Shown here: piece after piece, positions 12,641 through 46,496 of the stretch | Layout: each line of letters opens with the position of its first letter | Position numbering within the stretch: the stretch's first letter is position 1 | Virus record (IMG/VR): IMGVR_UViG_2724679538_000004 | Location: 45,799-109,798 of that record | Reading direction: 5' to 3' (one strand) | DNA from: a virus | Lineage: Duplodnaviria; Heunggongvirae; Uroviricota; Caudoviricetes | Length of the DNA stretch: 64,000 nt | Notes under the pieces: generated by a model | What the model saw: the letters and a program-made list of their open reading frames with translations, nothing else | Database searches by the model: none | What the model was told of the DNA's origin: nothing | Translations under genes and position numbers: made by a program

Positions 12641-13234
12641 ATGATAGCGGCTGAGAAAATTAAAAAACGAGAGCGTGACCCTTCTCTTAGAGATCTATGG
12701 CGCACACCTCAATGGTTGTTTAACGCTATCCAGAAATACTTAGGTGTTCAATTCGATGTGGACGTTGCCTGCAACAAAGACAACGCTCTTCTTGCAAATT
12801 ACATAGGCGTGGAGCGTGATGCTTTGAAAAGCAACTGGGGAGAACCGGGCACTATAGCATTCCTAAACCCGCCCTACTCGAAAATTTCCCCGTGGATCGA
12901 GGCCGCAATACGCGAACAAGCACGAGGTGTCACTACAGTTATGCTTATACCACAATCCCTTGATACAAAATGGTATGAGCGGGCCACTGAGCACGCAAAC
13001 GAAACGGTTATTCTGTCTGGAGGTCGTGTGGCTTTCGTGGAACCAGACGTTAATTTGGGATTTGTGGAGGTAAACATTAACCCTGGTGGAAGTATGCTTC
13101 TGATTTTTAGAGGCTTTTGTCAGGGAGCTGGACACACGATTAGAAAAATTCCTCTGGCGGTGTTGAAACAGCTGGGGGGTTATGATCCTGCCAATGTTTC
13201 CAGAAAGAAAAGAACATACAAGAAGGCAGCTTAA
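12641..13234 (+). CDS. phage Dam-family DNA N6-adenine methyltransferase
   Basis: DLWRTPQWLF and NPPYS motifs typical of phage Dam-type methyltransferases. Confidence 0.7.
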   Translation: MIAAEKIKKRERDPSLRDLWRTPQWLFNAIQKYLGVQFDVDVACNKDNALLANYIGVERDALKSNWGEPGTIAFLNPPYSKISPWIEAAIREQARGVTTVMLIPQSLDTKWYERATEHANETVILSGGRVAFVEPDVNLGFVEVNINPGGSMLLIFRGFCQGAGHTIRKIPLAVLKQLGGYDPANVSRKKRTYKKAA

Positions 13235-14183: not shown

Positions 14184-14208
14184 ACACGCACGCGTGTGCG
14201 CACGCGCG
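14184..14208. other. 25-nt perfectly alternating purine/pyrimidine GC-rich tract (ACACGCACGCGTGTGCGCACGCGCG)
   Basis: Read directly; about 40 nt upstream of the RNase HI start. Confidence 0.5.
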
Positions 14209-14246
14209 AGGAAAAAATCGGCGCGGCGCTTGATTCAGGAGTTTAT

Positions 14247-14843
14247 ATGACGACGAAGACACCAGCCCGATCGCAAGCAAAAACTCTCAAAAAAGCCAAA
14301 AACAAAAATTCTCCCCGCACCAATCACACAACGCCTGTCGTAGAGTTCAATCCCCAGCTTAAAACCGTGAAAATCTTTAGTGATGGCTCTTGCCTTAAAA
14401 ATCCGGGTGGTCCTGGCGGTTACGGTATCGTTCTCCAGTATCGTGGTGAGGAACGCGAGTTCTCAGATGGTTTTCATAGCACCACTAATAACCGCATGGA
14501 GATGATGGGCGCACTCATCGGGCTGGAGCGTTTGAAATATCCATGCAACGTTATTTTGTACTCTGATAGCCAGTATCTGAAAAACGGCATGACACAGTGG
14601 ATGAAATGGTGGAAACGAAATGGATGGATGACTTCTGATAAAAAACCGGTAAAGAATGTTGATCTGTGGAAGCGTCTGGATGAGGCCGCAAGTCGACATA
14701 ATGTTCGCTGGAAGTGGGTTAAAGGCCATGCGGGACATCGTGAAAACGAGATCTGTGATCGTCTTGCTAAGATTGCAGCATTCACTGCCGCTGATACTCC
14801 ATTTAAAAAAGATTTAGGTTTTTTGAATCAAAATAGTAAGTAA
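14247..14843 (+). CDS. rnhA: ribonuclease HI with basic N-terminal extension
   Basis: [45 protein letters not shown] align with E. coli RNase HI; ATG 14247 preceded by CAGGAG. Confidence 0.85.
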
Positions 14844-16371: not shown

Positions 16372-16397
16372 AGGGCCGACTATGGCCCTTTTGTTTC
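16372..16397 (+). terminator. intrinsic terminator
   Basis: AGGGCCGACTATGGCCCT hairpin plus T-run. Confidence 0.5.
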
Positions 16398-16408
16398 ATG
16401 GAGCGCGT

Positions 16409-17224
16409 ATGTTTGAGATTTCAACACTCACTTCTACTACCAAAGGTTTTCACGATAAGCCTTCAATGACCAGTCAGGAGATTGCCGAGTTGGTTGGCAG
16501 TCGTCACGACAGCGTTAAACGCACCATAGAACGGCTGGTAAAAACTGGCGTCATTACTTTTCCACCAATGGTGGAAAAGCCCACCGCAGGTCGCCCTTCG
16601 ACGATGTACCTGTTTGAAGGCGATCAGGGCAAACGAGACAGCATTGTCGTAGTTGCGCAGCTGTCGCCGGAATTTACGGCACGTTTAGTTGATCGCTGGA
16701 GAGAGTTGGAGTCCATATATGGCGCAGCTGTGACTCCAGCGATACCTCGTACCTACAAAGAAGCTCTTGTTCATTTGCTTCATCAGGTTGAAGAAAACGA
16801 GCGCCTTGAAAAGAAAAATGAGGCTTTGGAAGTAGCGCTGTCAAATGCAAAGCCAAAAGCCATTCTGATGGATACGATTTGCGGAACCGCAAATGAACTT
16901 TACGGGCTTAATGAAGCTGGGCGCATTCTCGGTACATCTGGTGTTGTTATGGGGGAATTTCTGGATTCTCTTGGCGACGTTTATGTAAAGCGCAAATACA
17001 CAACTATCAATCGTCAGTTCTTGAAGGCTTTCATTGACCGTGGCTATGGGAAAAATGTCGTGATCGGAACTGGACGTAACCAGGCAAAATTCACCTTTAA
17101 GGGGCTTTGCTTTGCGGCTGTGAAGCTGATTGCCGCAGGAAAAATAACCGTCAACTCCATCGAATATGAACCGTGCCGGGAACATGTTGAGCGTGAATTG
17201 AAGGGCGCAAAAAGTCTTCATTGA
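16409..17224 (+). CDS. Rha-family phage regulatory protein (antirepressor-like)
   Basis: MTSQEIAELVGSRHDSVKRTIERLV matches the Rha N-terminal signature; ATG 16409 with GGAG RBS. Confidence 0.55.
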   Translation: MFEISTLTSTTKGFHDKPSMTSQEIAELVGSRHDSVKRTIERLVKTGVITFPPMVEKPTAGRPSTMYLFEGDQGKRDSIVVVAQLSPEFTARLVDRWRELESIYGAAVTPAIPRTYKEALVHLLHQVEENERLEKKNEALEVALSNAKPKAILMDTICGTANELYGLNEAGRILGTSGVVMGEFLDSLGDVYVKRKYTTINRQFLKAFIDRGYGKNVVIGTGRNQAKFTFKGLCFAAVKLIAAGKITVNSIEYEPCREHVERELKGAKSLH

Positions 17225-17330: not shown

Positions 17331-17900
17331 ATGTGCGAGAAATGCAAAGCGATAGCTGATGAACAAAATGCCCTATTTGAAGAAATGGGTGCTAATGAGC
17401 TGGTAAAAATGTTAGCCATTCTTCGGGGAATAGAAGACGTTTCCATATTTGAGAGAGTGCTAACAGCACATAGTTTTAAGTCTACCTTTGAAGAGCCAAT
17501 TCAGGTTGTCGCTTTGGCGCACCATTTTGGTGTTCATTATCTTGCTGAAAAAGAGCGAGCTAAAAAGTTGCAGGCGACTTTGGATATGGTGAGCGAGCCT
17601 CAACGAACTCATGACGATAACAAGAGTGAGACGATTATTGCTGACAAAGATCGTGAAATTGCCGGACTCAAATCCTCTCTAACAATGTTGATGTCCGCAA
17701 TGAACCTGGTGTCATCTCAGGCTGGCTTAAAAATGCCATCACTAAATAGCTATGATCCGATGGCAGTGCGCCAGCTGCTTGGTGCAATGGCTGATCAGCT
17801 TGACGACACGAAAAATCGTATTGAAGATATGATGCGGGAACTTAGTCATCGTCATAATCTGACAACTCAGCCACATAAAGCTTTTCAAGTATCACATTAA
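17331..17900 (+). CDS. hypothetical protein
   Basis: 189-aa ORF with AAGGAAA RBS. Confidence 0.45.
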   Translation: MCEKCKAIADEQNALFEEMGANELVKMLAILRGIEDVSIFERVLTAHSFKSTFEEPIQVVALAHHFGVHYLAEKERAKKLQATLDMVSEPQRTHDDNKSETIIADKDREIAGLKSSLTMLMSAMNLVSSQAGLKMPSLNSYDPMAVRQLLGAMADQLDDTKNRIEDMMRELSHRHNLTTQPHKAFQVSH

Positions 17901-17970: not shown

Positions 17971-18414
17971 TTAAATACCAGGATTAGATAAATTGTCTAT
18001 GAATGTGCGGGTGGTATTGACAAATCCAGACCCAGAAAAGCGCATAATGAAGCCGTTTTCATCAAAAGTTACGCTCTTTTTATTCATAAATTCATTAAAA
18101 ATATGATTTGTGCCTGCTCTTGTTGAGGGATACCAATATATTCCCATATCACTGTCGCAGTCCTGATGCATGCGAACCTTTACACCGTTTATTTGCATGG
18201 GGACTGACTCGCCTGTTGTAGTGCATTTTTGTGATCTGTATGGTGTTAAGTATAAACCAGGTTCATTACCCTTTGATCTGGCAATAAAAATATACCAATT
18301 GCCGTCATCTGACAGTACTGCCGGAAGACTGTTCTTGGCTATATACCATCCTTCGGCGTTTGCCACAGATATTGAGCCGAATGTCAGAAGCATTGCGGCG
18401 ATAAATTTATGCAT
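17971..18414 (-). CDS. secreted protein of unknown function (moron-like, opposite strand)
   Basis: N-terminal signal peptide MHKFIAAMLLTFGSISVANA; flanked by AT-rich DNA. Confidence 0.55.
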   Translation of the reverse strand: MHKFIAAMLLTFGSISVANAEGWYIAKNSLPAVLSDDGNWYIFIARSKGNEPGLYLTPYRSQKCTTTGESVPMQINGVKVRMHQDCDSDMGIYWYPSTRAGTNHIFNEFMNKKSVTFDENGFIMRFSGSGFVNTTRTFIDNLSNPGI

Positions 18415-18663: not shown

Positions 18664-20349
18664 ATGACAACTGCCCTTTCAATCACTGACACCTTCAAAA
18701 CAAGTTCAGAAGTTGACTATCGAAAAGAGCTTAACCTCATCCATAAAATCGTTGCAGAGTGCGAACGCGAGATCGCTTTCATGCGCCAGGTACATGATTA
18801 CGTATATGGCGATGAACGCCATAAGATGATTAATCGTTTGTTACGACTTAACTACCGTCCAGATGATGAGAACGCTCGTTTTAATAACATTGTACTGGAC
18901 AAGGCTGATCTCGAATGGGTGAAGCAGAACATCTGGGCTGAATACTGGAAAAAGGTCACTGATATGACTAACGTTCTGCTGATCATGCCAGCTTCCCGTC
19001 GCGAGGAGTGGCGTGAGCAATTTATCGAGGGCAAGCAGGAAATCACCAAAACTGACAGAACTGGCTACCAGATGAAGGTTAAGGAGTTCGTTGGAGTACC
19101 CGAGTTCAAGGTAGAAACTGTCATACCAACGATGATTAGCCTTCTAAATGACAGACATAAATATCTTTCTGAGCGCGTGTACGGTTTGTTTAAGGTGCTG
19201 AGTCCTGCACATAAGACCAACAAAACGAACGGCTTTAGCGAACGTTTGATCATTGCCAATTGCATTACTGATTTTTGGCGGGATAGCGTAAGTGTTAATT
19301 ATAAGCTTGAGGACTACATTGACGATCTGCGGGTATTGCTGCATTTCTTCGCGCACAAAGAGTTCATTACTATTAATCGCAGTTCGCAGATGCTATCCCT
19401 GGCATACAGAGCTAATGGCTGCAACACCGGTGAGTGGGTGAGCGTCGACGGCAATTTAATGCGTGTGAAGATGTTCAAGAACGGTAACGTTCACTTCGAA
19501 ATCCACCCTGACGTGGCCTGGAAGTTGAATGAAGTTCTGGCGCACAGTATGCCATCAGCCATACCTGCACCATGTCGTACCGCGCCAAAAACGCGAGCGC
19601 CAAAAGAGTTTGGCACTATTCATAAGATTATTTCAGACCCTGTACGAATCGCTTTGCGAGACGGACGACGTACCCGTAATCAAGAAGCCTGGTACTTTTC
19701 TGATTCATGTTTGCAGAAAAATCAGGTGGAAGAGTTGGAGCGTACATTAAGTTTTATTGGAGGAGTACGGGAGAACAGTCAGTGGACGTTCCCCTATGAT
19801 GCGACACAAACAATAAACAGTATCGTTGATACGGGGCTAGTTCCAGAAGCGAAATCACACCAGTTCTATCCAACACCGCATGTAATCGCTGAGTATGTGG
19901 CGAGAGCGATCGATCATAAGCCTGGAGAAACTCTTTTGGAACCGGAAGCCGGGCGTGGTGATTTGTTGTCCTGTATTGACGCTAACCGGGAAGATATTAC
20001 CTGCATAGAATTAGCTCCCCTTTTTGCGGATATCCTCCGTTCAAAGGGGTACGCGAATACGATTTGTTGCGACTTCTTGAAATGGTCAGAGAGTAATGCA
20101 GGCTATCAATTCGACAAAATCGTTATGAATCCCCCCTACTCTTTTAATCGCTATAAAGAGCACACGCTATCTGCTCTTGGGCATCTGAAAGTTGGAGGCA
20201 GGCTGGTGGCCGTGTTGCCGGGAAACTCGCCTTCGCTTAATTGGATGACTTTGGATAATTACGTTTATGCAAAGGGGAAATCTTTCACTGGTGAGTTCGC
20301 TGATACGGGGGTTACTGTCAGCGTGTATGTCTTCAAACGCGTAAAATAA
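18664..20349 (+). CDS. DNA methyltransferase with a ~400-aa N-terminal domain of unknown function
   Basis: C-terminal ~160 aa carries FYPTP, LEPEAGRGDL (SAM-binding) and NPPY motifs; ATG 18664. Confidence 0.65.
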   Translation: MTTALSITDTFKTSSEVDYRKELNLIHKIVAECEREIAFMRQVHDYVYGDERHKMINRLLRLNYRPDDENARFNNIVLDKADLEWVKQNIWAEYWKKVTDMTNVLLIMPASRREEWREQFIEGKQEITKTDRTGYQMKVKEFVGVPEFKVETVIPTMISLLNDRHKYLSERVYGLFKVLSPAHKTNKTNGFSERLIIANCITDFWRDSVSVNYKLEDYIDDLRVLLHFFAHKEFITINRSSQMLSLAYRANGCNTGEWVSVDGNLMRVKMFKNGNVHFEIHPDVAWKLNEVLAHSMPSAIPAPCRTAPKTRAPKEFGTIHKIISDPVRIALRDGRRTRNQEAWYFSDSCLQKNQVEELERTLSFIGGVRENSQWTFPYDATQTINSIVDTGLVPEAKSHQFYPTPHVIAEYVARAIDHKPGETLLEPEAGRGDLLSCIDANREDITCIELAPLFADILRSKGYANTICCDFLKWSESNAGYQFDKIVMNPPYSFNRYKEHTLSALGHLKVGGRLVAVLPGNSPSLNWMTLDNYVYAKGKSFTGEFADTGVTVSVYVFKRVK

Positions 20350-20369: not shown

Positions 20370-20410
20370 ATATGTAAGAATGTAGTTAGTTGAAGACGAG
20401 AGAAAAGCAC

Positions 20411-21106
20411 ATGACAAATTACAGATTTACGGCATGGGATGATTCACGGCCCCCCTTCAAATTCTGTATGAGAGGAGAACTTGATCAGCCTGCTGGAGCA
20501 ATCATCATCGATAAAGATGTTGTTAAGTTTGAGGGTGACTTTGATACATCAGCAAAGCTTTTCGTTGAACATGTTGCCAAACGCTGGAGTAAGCAGTGGA
20601 AAAGCCTTGAAAAACGCGCTCTTGGATTTGATGTATTTATGGCTGGCATTGATACAGCAAAAAAGGCTCTGGCTGCCGGAAATCCATTAGATCTTGAATC
20701 ACTTTTCAAAGGTGAAATGGCCTCAGCCATGTTCGCCACTATGTTCGCGGGTGAGTTCGTCCGTAGCGGTGCCAGAAACTATCTGGAGCTGTTGTACAAC
20801 GTTCCTGAAATGGGTGATTTTACCGTCACTATTCAACGCAAAGAAGGTAAGACTCCAGGCGAACGTATCGCTGAACTTGAGGCTGTGGTGGACCAGCGTA
20901 ACGGAGAATGTGATCGTTTGGTCAACGAACTTAATGCTCTCCGGGAAGAAAAAATTGGAACGGGTAGCAATACACGCAATGCTGCGGATATCTACTTCCA
21001 GTTAGTCGAGGAATGCCAGATTCCACCAGGCGGATCTCTTGTCGATTACGTCAGACATTTAATGGAGCAAGTGGATTCCAAAGATAAAGATAGTGAGGGA
21101 CGCTAA
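20411..21106 (+). CDS. hypothetical protein
   Basis: ATG 20411 with GAGAG RBS; the tracked ORF begins at an upstream TTG. Confidence 0.45.
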   Translation: MTNYRFTAWDDSRPPFKFCMRGELDQPAGAIIIDKDVVKFEGDFDTSAKLFVEHVAKRWSKQWKSLEKRALGFDVFMAGIDTAKKALAAGNPLDLESLFKGEMASAMFATMFAGEFVRSGARNYLELLYNVPEMGDFTVTIQRKEGKTPGERIAELEAVVDQRNGECDRLVNELNALREEKIGTGSNTRNAADIYFQLVEECQIPPGGSLVDYVRHLMEQVDSKDKDSEGR

Positions 21107-21726: not shown

Positions 21727-21785
21727 AATAAATTGTTTTCTACCTTTTCTTATTTGTGAAAATAACCACAACTAGAAAACAATGG
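21727..21785 (+). promoter_or_regulatory. sigma70-like promoter (TTGTTTTC ... TGTGAAAAT) plus operator half-site
   Basis: Nearly identical to the promoter at 27652-27718. Confidence 0.45.
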
Positions 21786-21793
21786 AGTTAAGA

Positions 21794-22435
21794 ATGTCTC
21801 GCATTTCCGAAGCACACATGTTCGCCGCTGGCGCTCATGGTGGCGTTGGCCAGAAAAGAAAATATACCGGTGAAGATTATATCAATCACCCGGTTGCTGT
21901 CCGAGAGATTGTTGCATTGCATGACGGAACCGTGGAGATGCAGATCGCGGCGCTTCTGCATGATGTGGTCGAAGACACCAATGTAACCACAGAGATGGTA
22001 CGTGATCACTTCGGTGAGCGCGTAGCTGAAATGGTTCAGGCTCTGACCAATATTGCAAGGCCAGAAGACGGCAATCGAATACAGCGTTTCATCATCAATG
22101 TCCGGGAGCTGGAGCAAAATCTCGACATGCAGACGCGCATGATCAAGCTGGCTGACCTGCTCGACAATACCTCTTCTATCGTGAGTCGCGATCCTGAGTT
22201 TTCAGCTATCTACCTTGCAGAGAAAGAGCTGATGCTGGACGTACTTTTTAACGGGAAGGAGATTGGTACCAACGCTGATGTTGTCGAGTACATGGAGAGG
22301 ATAGGTATAGAACACCCGTTGCTATTAAGCGCAATGGCGAAAGTCACTGAAGGTATTGCGCTTCTGAAACCGGTACTCATCAAACGTTATGAAAAACACA
22401 AATCGCTGATCTGGAGCGCGTGGGAGGCTGCATGA
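21794..22435 (+). CDS. HD-domain small alarmone hydrolase, (p)ppGpp-hydrolase-like (SpoT/Mesh1 family)
   Basis: HGGVGQKRKYTGEDYINHPVAV and AALLHDVVEDT match the RelA/SpoT HD hydrolase signature; GGAG RBS before ATG 21794. Confidence 0.75.
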   Translation: MSRISEAHMFAAGAHGGVGQKRKYTGEDYINHPVAVREIVALHDGTVEMQIAALLHDVVEDTNVTTEMVRDHFGERVAEMVQALTNIARPEDGNRIQRFIINVRELEQNLDMQTRMIKLADLLDNTSSIVSRDPEFSAIYLAEKELMLDVLFNGKEIGTNADVVEYMERIGIEHPLLLSAMAKVTEGIALLKPVLIKRYEKHKSLIWSAWEAA

Positions 22436-44921: not shown

Positions 44922-46496
44922 ATGGAATTGGATGACAAACAAATTAAAGATTTAGTGGCAAGACGCCACCCTGAATACGAAAAGAAAAAGACACATTGGG
45001 ACTTCCTCGCCAGCACTTACGCTGGTGGGCGTGGTTGGTTCGCTGACAACATCTTTCGTTATTTCAAAGAAGGCGATCAGGAGTTTAAGGAACGTCTTGA
45101 GCGTGCTTACCGCTTCAATCACACCCGTGAAGTAGTAAACCTCATTAATAAATACCTGTTTAAAGAAGATATCCATCGAAACACAGAGGAAGCGCCTGAG
45201 CAGATCCGTAACTTCTGGAAAAGAGCGACACGCCAGAATGCATCTATCGACTCATTTATGGCTGCTATCGATTTGCAATCGTCAATCTATGGCCGTATTT
45301 GGGTTGTTGTAGATAGCACAATGAATGGTGATGTGGAGTCAGTCGCTGATGAGAAGAGGAAGAATGCACGTGCCTATGCCTACTGGATTTCCCCTCAACA
45401 AATGCTGGATGTGGCATGGGATGATGACGGCAATATGTTATGGGCGTTAATTGTGGAAGTTGCTCGTGATGATGCAGATCCATTTACTTCAACCGGTCAG
45501 GAATACCAACGTTATCGTCTGTGGACACAAAACGAGTGGTATCTGTTCCGTGAAGAAGTTAAGAAGAGCGCTGGCGGAGCCGGTCGCCGTCAGGCAAAAG
45601 TTATTTTAGAGGATAGCGGTGAACATAATCTCGGCGTAGTTCCCGTGTTTCCTGTTGATTGTATTGGAGAAAGCGAATCACCGTATTTCAGTCCATCGTT
45701 AATCGATGACATCGCATATCTTGATCGTGCTGTAGCCAACTATTTGTCTAACCTTGATGCCATTATTCAGGATCAAACTTTCAGTCAGTTGGCTATCCCC
45801 GTGCAGTCGATGATGCCTGGTGATGAAAGCCATAGCAAGGTGCTGGAAATGGGCACAAAACGAGTTTTCACCTACGATTCTGAAGGTGGAAACCAGCCGT
45901 TTTATCTTTCTCCAGATCCAAAACAAGCTCAGATGATCATCACTACGATTAAGACGGTGATTAATGAAATCTACCATTCAGTTGGTGTTGCTGGCGAACG
46001 AACGAAGCAGGATAACGCACAGGGAATCGATAACTCTTCTGGTGCCGCTAAGATGTATGACTTCCAGCGAGTTAACAGTCTGCTGGTCACAAAAGCAGAG
46101 CGTCTTGAAAGGGCAGAGCGACAAATTATGCAACTTGTCGCTAAATGGATGGGAGTCGAGCTGGATGAAGACCATTCTCTAATTGCTTACCCTGAGAGTT
46201 TTGATATTCGCGGTCTTACTGACGAATTTGCTGTTGCTGAGAAGCTGTCAATGCTTCAAGCGCCTGATTCTGTACGTCGTCGTCAGATGGAAATGCTCAT
46301 CGAGAAGATTTTCCCGAATATCACTGAGGCGATGAAAAAGGAATTTGATAAAGATCTCTTGAATTTTCCGCCAAAAAATGATCTAAATACCCTTGAAAAT
46401 AAGTCAGTACTTACTTATCATCGAGATACAGCTCAAGAAACCGAGCAAGATCAACCCCGAGGGAGTGGGGACTCATCTACTCAAGAAACCGAGTGA
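44922..46496 (+). CDS. portal protein (putative)
   Basis: 524 aa; position between terminase and scaffold. Confidence 0.6.
   Translation: MELDDKQIKDLVARRHPEYEKKKTHWDFLASTYAGGRGWFADNIFRYFKEGDQEFKERLERAYRFNHTREVVNLINKYLFKEDIHRNTEEAPEQIRNFWKRATRQNASIDSFMAAIDLQSSIYGRIWVVVDSTMNGDVESVADEKRKNARAYAYWISPQQMLDVAWDDDGNMLWALIVEVARDDADPFTSTGQEYQRYRLWTQNEWYLFREEVKKSAGGAGRRQAKVILEDSGEHNLGVVPVFPVDCIGESESPYFSPSLIDDIAYLDRAVANYLSNLDAIIQDQTFSQLAIPVQSMMPGDESHSKVLEMGTKRVFTYDSEGGNQPFYLSPDPKQAQMIITTIKTVINEIYHSVGVAGERTKQDNAQGIDNSSGAAKMYDFQRVNSLLVTKAERLERAERQIMQLVAKWMGVELDEDHSLIAYPESFDIRGLTDEFAVAEKLSMLQAPDSVRRRQMEMLIEKIFPNITEAMKKEFDKDLLNFPPKNDLNTLENKSVLTYHRDTAQETEQDQPRGSGDSSTQETE

Follow-up and report, generated by a model that had tools for sequence, protein, structure and literature searches.

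A DUF4942-type methyltransferase of an SSU5-like phage-plasmid: a putative orphan DNA adenine methyltransferase with an invariant two-module architecture

Proteins of the DUF4942 family occur on IncHI plasmids, in lambdoid prophages and on islands, where they are annotated as 'DUF4942 domain-containing protein' or 'class I SAM-dependent methyltransferase' (SAM, S-adenosylmethionine). One of them is encoded downstream of the YeeU/YeeV toxin-antitoxin genes on the SRL pathogenicity island (PMC6980539). The gamma-class enzymes M.TaqI, M.BseCI and CamA carry a C-terminal target-recognition domain of 150–300 residues. M.EcoGIX and M.BceJIII are plasmid-encoded, single-strand-specific orphan N6-methyladenine (m6A) methyltransferases, and M.EcoGIX protects entering DNA from restriction; their authors place both in the beta class, with the motif DPPY (Fomenkov et al. 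2020, PMC7736820). We analyzed a 561-residue protein with a C-terminal methyltransferase core, encoded on a 64,000-nucleotide stretch of viral DNA (the window; positions 45,799 to 109,798 of IMG/VR record IMGVR_UViG_2724679538_000004). The protein has the two modules, the length and the invariant residues of the DUF4942 family at 30–35% overall identity. On balance, it is probably a solitary (orphan) SAM-dependent DNA adenine-N6 methyltransferase that uses its DUF4942 module for substrate binding and protects its element from restriction, and its gene a standard accessory gene of SSU5-like phage-plasmids.

The window is an SSU5-like phage-plasmid, with a nucleotide identity of 76–78% to Salmonella phage SSU5, to Escherichia phage CMS-2020a and to Klebsiella relatives; it also matches 535 mostly non-mobilisable plasmids of ~110 kb in Enterobacteriaceae. 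The methyltransferase gene is the syntenic ortholog of SSU5_095 (gp95, YP_006906727.1, 'DNA methyltransferase'). The two proteins have the same length and share 81% amino acid identity over all 561 residues. The local gene order is that of SSU5_093 to SSU5_099 (Rha/Ant-like, hypothetical, methyltransferase, hypothetical, Eaa-like or small open reading frames, HD phosphohydrolase), and length and gene order are likewise what the orthologs of SSU5-like and pHCM2-like phage-plasmids have in common with the window gene. Copies with at least 60% amino acid identity are present in approximately 600 plasmid records.

The open reading frame (ORF) on the plus strand opens at TTG 18646, and its ATG at 18664 gives the 561-residue protein. 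This ATG agrees with the N-terminal methionine and the 561-residue length of most homologs, and gene callers picked it on four public contigs that carry an identical protein. Neither start is preceded by a clear Shine–Dalgarno sequence, and a promoter and terminator scan around the gene gave nothing above shuffled expectation. The identical protein is already present in NCBI assembly GCA_000968885.2, on a 109.8-kb contig. An earlier sequence-only reading of the window had proposed a second methyltransferase at this ORF, with FYPTP, EPEAGRG and NPPY as its motifs. The ORF is real, and the motifs are where that reading had placed them.

Judged by its motifs, the catalytic core has the gamma-class order and all the residues that SAM binding and adenine-N6 catalysis should require. 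M.TaqI was the best solved relative at the sequence level in the PDB (E 0.16 with the single sequence and 1.3e-3 with a family profile). Residues 403–494 were collinear with M.TaqI residues 22–110 through the 'TP' motif, motif I, the DF dipeptide and NPPY, which gives the gamma-class succession of motif X-like, I, II, III and IV. E449 stands at what we take to be the motif II position. Conservation was assessed on 130 family representatives at 50% identity or less. Q400, Y402, P403 and T404 were conserved in at least 89% of them, the motif I residues E426, P427, G430 and G432 in at least 96%, and D470-F471 in 98%; E449 was kept in 95% and was invariant in a set of 54 sequences. NPP[YF] was retained in ~342 of 352 full-length family members. 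Both the motif IV signature (N/D)PP(Y/F) and the glycine-rich SAM loop are conserved family-wide. A difference within the family is that the subfamily of the window protein has NPPY, whereas most members have NPPF.

Two PADLOC Type II methyltransferase models (E 1e-12 and 6e-10) and the MADS mad2 model (E 1e-15) matched the core at residues 396–526, and precomputed hits to PF02384 or PF05175 were present in some family members. The 561-residue protein had no match to PF05869, the phage Dam family. Unlike M.TaqI, M.BseCI and CamA, it has no C-terminal target-recognition domain and ends with the core, 69 residues past NPPY. It has instead an N-terminal extension of 395 residues, which resembles no solved structure.

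Most of this extension belongs to DUF4942. Residues 128–296 (nucleotides 19045–19551) matched Pfam DUF4942 (PF13708) with 72.2 bits (cut-off 25, E 6e-20) over profile positions 23–188 of 190, and the same domain was matched by 22 of 22 aligned homologs. PHROG 6263, 'DNA methyltransferase', aligned with the 561-residue protein from end to end (E 7e-266). The AlphaFold 2 model predicted a long helix at residues 20–48, short helices up to residue 121, a hairpin at 124–142 that varies among homologs or is missing from them, a mixed alpha/beta region at 150–305 and a small alpha/beta subdomain at 320–394. PHROG 9133, a 1259-residue profile, aligned to residues 335–560, indicating that the subdomain at ~320–394 accompanies the methyltransferase core in other proteins. 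G366, F376 and Y378 are conserved within it. Structure comparison found no solved relative of the DUF4942 core or of the N-terminal module as a whole. A weak match of residues 213–239 to Pfam HTH_52 was discarded, as it was seen in only one of the 22 homologs.

The DUF4942 core (residues 86–310) is 37–43% identical to distant homologs, and the catalytic core 34–40%. In residues 1–85 and 311–365, the identity drops to 6–26%, and these two segments are essentially unrelated in sequence to the wider family. Eleven residues of the DUF4942 core (W95, F148, L179, S180, H183, T185, N186, W258, H277, N289 and L292) were conserved in all 130 representatives, and D221, R223 and D262 in at least 98%. The family-invariant motifs are L179-S180-x-x-H183-x-T185-N186, D221-x-R223 and H277-x-E-x-H281-P-D283. 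The first of them reads LSPAHKTN in the protein (window 19198–19221). His500 (window 20161–20163), eight residues past NPPY, is also 100% conserved in the 130 family members. To our knowledge, neither His500 nor L-S-x-x-H-x-T-N matches a named methyltransferase motif. They may mark a substrate-binding surface.

The family was searched with a word-indexed search, with a profile of distant members, and with a full HMMER scan that used residues 1–380 alone. The word-indexed search returned 386 relatives. The profile yielded at least 2,473 clusters at 90% identity, and a length of 520–585 residues and a PF13708 domain are shared by nearly all of them. The HMMER scan gave 614 representatives at 50% identity; almost all were 510–580 residues long, with the match in the N-terminal part. 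The 561-residue protein, with its N-terminal DUF4942 and its C-terminal core, falls within this range. Short DUF4942 proteins were considered as a sign of independent function, and three short representatives were checked. Two of them stop at a contig end, and in the third the gene is interrupted by a 2.2-kb insertion, so that none was a stand-alone protein. The uniform lengths, the retained NPP[YF] and the nature of these short forms indicated that DUF4942 and the methyltransferase are one obligate unit and not an occasional fusion. The interrupted gene is on JGI metagenome contig Ga0558116_00102 (L015, 4001–7586), where ~2.2 kb separate its QFYPTP-like motif from motif I. A long ORF lies within this insertion, which may be a group II intron, as the contig also encodes a group II intron reverse transcriptase/maturase nearby.

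The sequence-only reading had presented the protein as a fusion of a methyltransferase with an unknown ~400-residue N-terminal domain. The combination of DUF4942 and methyltransferase is no new fusion; it is invariant throughout a very large family, which includes the SSU5 gene annotated 'DNA methyltransferase'. The novelty claim fails because the N-terminal domain matches a catalogued family, the outcome that reading had itself named as counting against it; the family is known by name only. What stands is that the module lacks an assigned function, and its extent is better given as ~1–330, followed by the subdomain that is tied to the core.

Members of the family occur only on phages, plasmids and islands. 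A tblastn search found the protein in 2,599 plasmid records, of which 1,380 are predicted to be conjugative. On IncHI2 and IncHI1B plasmids, the gene lies beside a Dam-family gene and a 'DNA-binding protein' gene, near the rep genes. In Serratia and Aeromonas lambdoid prophages, it lies in the early-right operon, between cro/cII-like genes and the nin/Q genes. The full-length form was found in 28 phage records, including Pseudomonas phiPSA1, psageK9 and Jeremy, Marinomonas P12026 and Aeromonas vB_AsaM-56. No conserved neighbours or partner genes were found outside SSU5-like elements, and neither a conserved nuclease or specificity gene nor a fused nuclease domain was found. As the neighbours differ between element types and no such partner is conserved, the enzyme is an orphan. 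The second methyltransferase of the sequence-only reading is thus borne out as an intact-looking, SAM-dependent enzyme that is of the DNA N6-adenine type by its motifs and has no conserved restriction partner.

In one SSU5-like relative, Klebsiella pneumoniae pJX11-2 (NZ_CP064210.1; L005, 4001–8180), the methyltransferase is reduced to a 71-residue N-terminal remnant, and Type I hsdR and hsdS genes occupy its place. The methyltransferase is therefore dispensable for maintenance in pJX11-2, and the replacement marks the locus as a cargo-exchange site. The remnant is mis-annotated as 'restriction endonuclease subunit M'. Similar short N-terminal remnants were seen in other Klebsiella plasmids and in phage vB_KpnS_p4727.

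Outside the family, a homologous catalytic core (~396–560) is present in giant phage proteins (PHROGs 15406, 11358, 10691 and 5143, and the 'PLxRFG' proteins of Pseudomonas phages F116 and H66). The core matched the PHROG profiles at E 3e-20 to 2e-5 and the proteins at 33–35% identity by tblastn. A difference is that these proteins are 1,200–3,900 residues long with other domains (PHROGs with this core are of 1,259–3,925 residues), and the matches are confined to the catalytic-core region. M.EcoGIX, a methyltransferase of the plasmid leading region, was considered as a homolog after the name 'YdiA' on a Salmonella Typhi homolog, and was rejected as a beta-class DPPY enzyme; a literature search for ydiA together with 'leading region' found nothing. 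The window protein has the gamma order and NPPY, and is set apart from M.EcoGIX and M.BceJIII by their published description. As beta-class enzymes with DPPY, these two are functional analogues at most, not relatives. By analogy, M.EcoGIX still offers the best experimental guide to the possible action of such an enzyme.

If the protein is an orphan DNA adenine-N6 methyltransferase, its activity can be pictured as follows. The core, the C-terminal 165 residues, would bind SAM through EPEAGRG, E449 and D470-F471, and a flipped adenine would be accepted at NPPY. Since the core ends ~70 residues past NPPY without a TaqI-type C-terminal domain, nucleic-acid binding and target selection would fall to DUF4942 and the 320–394 subdomain in place of a target-recognition domain. 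The gene would be expressed together with the accessory genes on the same strand (Dam, RNase H, Ant and HD). Its product would methylate the DNA of its own element, and host DNA incidentally, so that the element would be less exposed to restriction upon entry or replication in a new host. Target recognition, layered anti-restriction and epigenetic control, the roles that the sequence-only reading had suggested, are plausible.

Several observations weigh against an orphan DNA methyltransferase of this kind. The literature on DUF4942, PF13708, SSU5, pHCM2 and IncHI methyltransferases yielded no methylation or functional data; the DUF4942 mentions examined were gene-table or gene-content entries only, and PF13708 gave no matches. 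The top structural matches of the core were the rRNA m6A enzymes METTL5 (score 19.2, 15% identity) and PH1948 (18.3, 19%), with KsgA and Erm close behind (about 17, 15–19%), next to the DNA enzymes M.BseCI (17.9, 21%), M.TaqI (17.3, 26%), CamA (16.6, 27%) and Type I HsdM (15–17, 16–24%). Pfam N6_Mtase (PF02384) scored 19.9 bits against a cut-off of 20.4, with a partial match to residues 472–531. Because the best structural matches are rRNA enzymes and the N6_Mtase score is below its cut-off, the assignment of a DNA substrate draws on context. The N-terminal module showed no recognisable DNA-binding fold. The DUF4942 core is as conserved as the catalytic core, with invariant His, Asp and Asn residues, unlike the hypervariable target-recognition domains of sequence-specific enzymes. 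This argues against a variable sequence-reading domain, and it fits a fixed (unusual) substrate, partner binding or catalysis equally well.

The structural matches raise the alternative of an RNA m6A methyltransferase, METTL5-, KsgA- or Erm-like, that acts on host rRNA or tRNA and uses DUF4942 as an RNA- or ribosome-binding module. We regard this as improbable. The NCBIfam models of rRNA adenine methyltransferases (KsgA/RsmA, Erm and METTL5) gave 12–17 bits against cut-offs of 171–320, the best sequence matches were DNA enzymes (M.TaqI in the PDB and the Type II methyltransferase models), and the genes of this mobile-element family often lie beside other DNA methyltransferase genes. The invariant polar residues of DUF4942 suggest another alternative, in which the domain catalyses a reaction of its own, perhaps as a nuclease or hydrolase that relies on H183, D221, D262, H277, H281 and N289, and the protein a single-chain restriction-modification-like or DNA-processing enzyme. 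These residues cluster in LSxxHxTN, DLR and HxExHPD, the last of which is placed at a strand-strand-helix element (266–295) in the model. Type IIG enzymes place a nuclease N-terminal to a gamma-type methyltransferase, and the homolog of Pseudomonas phage Jeremy was labelled 'RE endonuclease' by its depositors. Residues 1–392 gave no match to a nuclease family or fold, and a bifunctional enzyme seems to us hardly likely.

Two other readings keep the DNA methyltransferase and change its role or its target. A mainly regulatory enzyme could act in replication, lysis-lysogeny or packaging control, possibly on replication intermediates or single strands like M.EcoGIX and M.BceJIII. The gene's place in the early-right operon of lambdoid prophages, beside the replication-gene position, and near the rep and Dam genes of IncHI plasmids is consistent with this, and single-strand-specific, replication-linked methyltransferases of mobile elements exist (PMC7736820). 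However, the enzyme is dispensable in the Klebsiella relative, which is maintained, and M.EcoGIX is unrelated to it in motif order or catalytic motif; a mainly regulatory role is rather unlikely. It is also conceivable, though we would not expect it, that DUF4942 is a previously unrecognised substrate-selecting or second catalytic module with a fixed, non-canonical target. The family would then be its own class of mobile-element methyltransferases, with a minimal gamma-type core and an obligate N-terminal domain of ~330 residues. Conservation of DUF4942 residues across enzymes that are only 30% identical would speak for such a fixed target and against variable sequence recognition. The target might be DNA that is single-stranded or replicating, a DNA structure, or adenines methylated in a near-non-specific manner. 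An orphan DNA adenine-N6 methyltransferase that protects its own element remains the reading we prefer. The coordinates of the gene, its parts and its annotated neighbours are given in Table 1.

Table 1. Features of the methyltransferase gene and of neighbouring genes in the window
Feature	Coordinates	Strand	Basis
Complete coding sequence, 561 residues plus stop, DUF4942-type methyltransferase, SSU5_095 ortholog	18664..20349	+	ORF list, synteny, PHROG 6263
Residues 1–85, variable N-terminal helical segment (long helix 20–48 plus short helices)	18664..18918	+	AlphaFold 2, identity figures
Residues 86–310, conserved DUF4942 core	18919..19593	+	Pfam, conservation among 54 and 130 diverse homologs
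Residues 311–395, variable linker plus small alpha/beta subdomain ~320–394	19594..19848	+	AlphaFold 2, PHROG 9133, conservation
Residues 396–561, predicted minimal Rossmann-fold SAM-dependent methyltransferase core, gamma-type motif order, without C-terminal target-recognition domain	19849..20346	+	
FYPTP, residues 401–405, motif X-like, aligned with 'ETP' of M.TaqI	19864..19878	+	phmmer/hmmsearch alignments
EPEAGRG, residues 426–432, motif I (SAM-binding loop), aligned with LEPACAHG of M.TaqI	19939..19959	+	
C-I-E449, acidic residue ending strand 2 (presumed motif II position), aligned with 'VEI' of M.TaqI	20002..20010	+	
D470-F471, motif III position, aligned with DF of M.TaqI ('DFLkW' / 'DFLlW')	20071..20076	+	
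NPPY, residues 489–492, catalytic motif IV, aligned with NPPY of M.TaqI	20128..20139	+	
Second methyltransferase of the element, phage Dam family, SSU5_088 ortholog	12641..13234	+	Pfam PF05869 E 9e-38
RNase H (PF00075), SSU5_090 match	14196..14843	same as methyltransferase gene	
Rha/Ant-like regulator (PF09669), SSU5_093 match	16382..17224	same as methyltransferase gene	
HD-domain phosphohydrolase (PF13328), SSU5_099 match	21782..22435	same as methyltransferase gene	

The ORFs that directly flank the gene (17331–17900 and 20390–21106) had no match in Pfam or in the PADLOC defence models. A difference from SSU5 is an extra minus-strand ORF upstream of the gene (17971–18414), between the orthologs of SSU5_094 and SSU5_095. 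It encodes 147 residues with a signal-peptide-like N-terminus (MHKFIAAMLLTFGSISVANA). No tblastn match to it was found in SSU5, which has a short gap there, and a Pfam search gave no match. The gene calls of the four contigs with the identical methyltransferase all include this ORF.

The Dam-family enzyme that the sequence-only reading had recognised elsewhere in the window was confirmed by Pfam. The SSU5-like window thus holds two DNA methyltransferases, and a second, unrelated DNA methyltransferase repeatedly co-occurs with the DUF4942 methyltransferase in unrelated elements (L002, 6351–10635; L010, 6288–10569; L004, 124–702 and 10001–11647; L012, 2131–6509; L003, 4392–6014 and 13693–15060). 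On IncHI2 and IncHI1B plasmids, a Dam-family gene is one gene away. The Aeromonas prophage has a PF05869 Dam and the Serratia prophage a ParB-N6_N4 methyltransferase. In Pseudomonas phage phiPSA1, the next annotated coding sequence upstream encodes a 413-residue methyltransferase. In Pseudomonas phage Jeremy (PV565041.1; L011, 1–5413), a large ADP-ribosyltransferase gene and a 'nucleotide phosphatase' gene lie just upstream of the DUF4942 homolog, and the cluster resembles a set of host-takeover or counter-defence genes.

Public databases already hold the gene, its family and its annotation, and the gene is the ordinary counterpart of an annotated SSU5 gene. As a known accessory gene of a well-sampled group of phage-plasmids, it matters little in the window itself. 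The wider interest is in the family. Enterobacterial phage-plasmids, IncHI resistance plasmids and prophages have few methyltransferase architectures that are as common as the DUF4942 type, and the interest is in what DUF4942 does and in the recurrent pairing with a second methyltransferase in unrelated elements. The frequent pairing makes the idea of layered protection testable. The target of the enzyme, and any blunting of restriction by it, would help to explain the host range and the establishment of elements that spread resistance.

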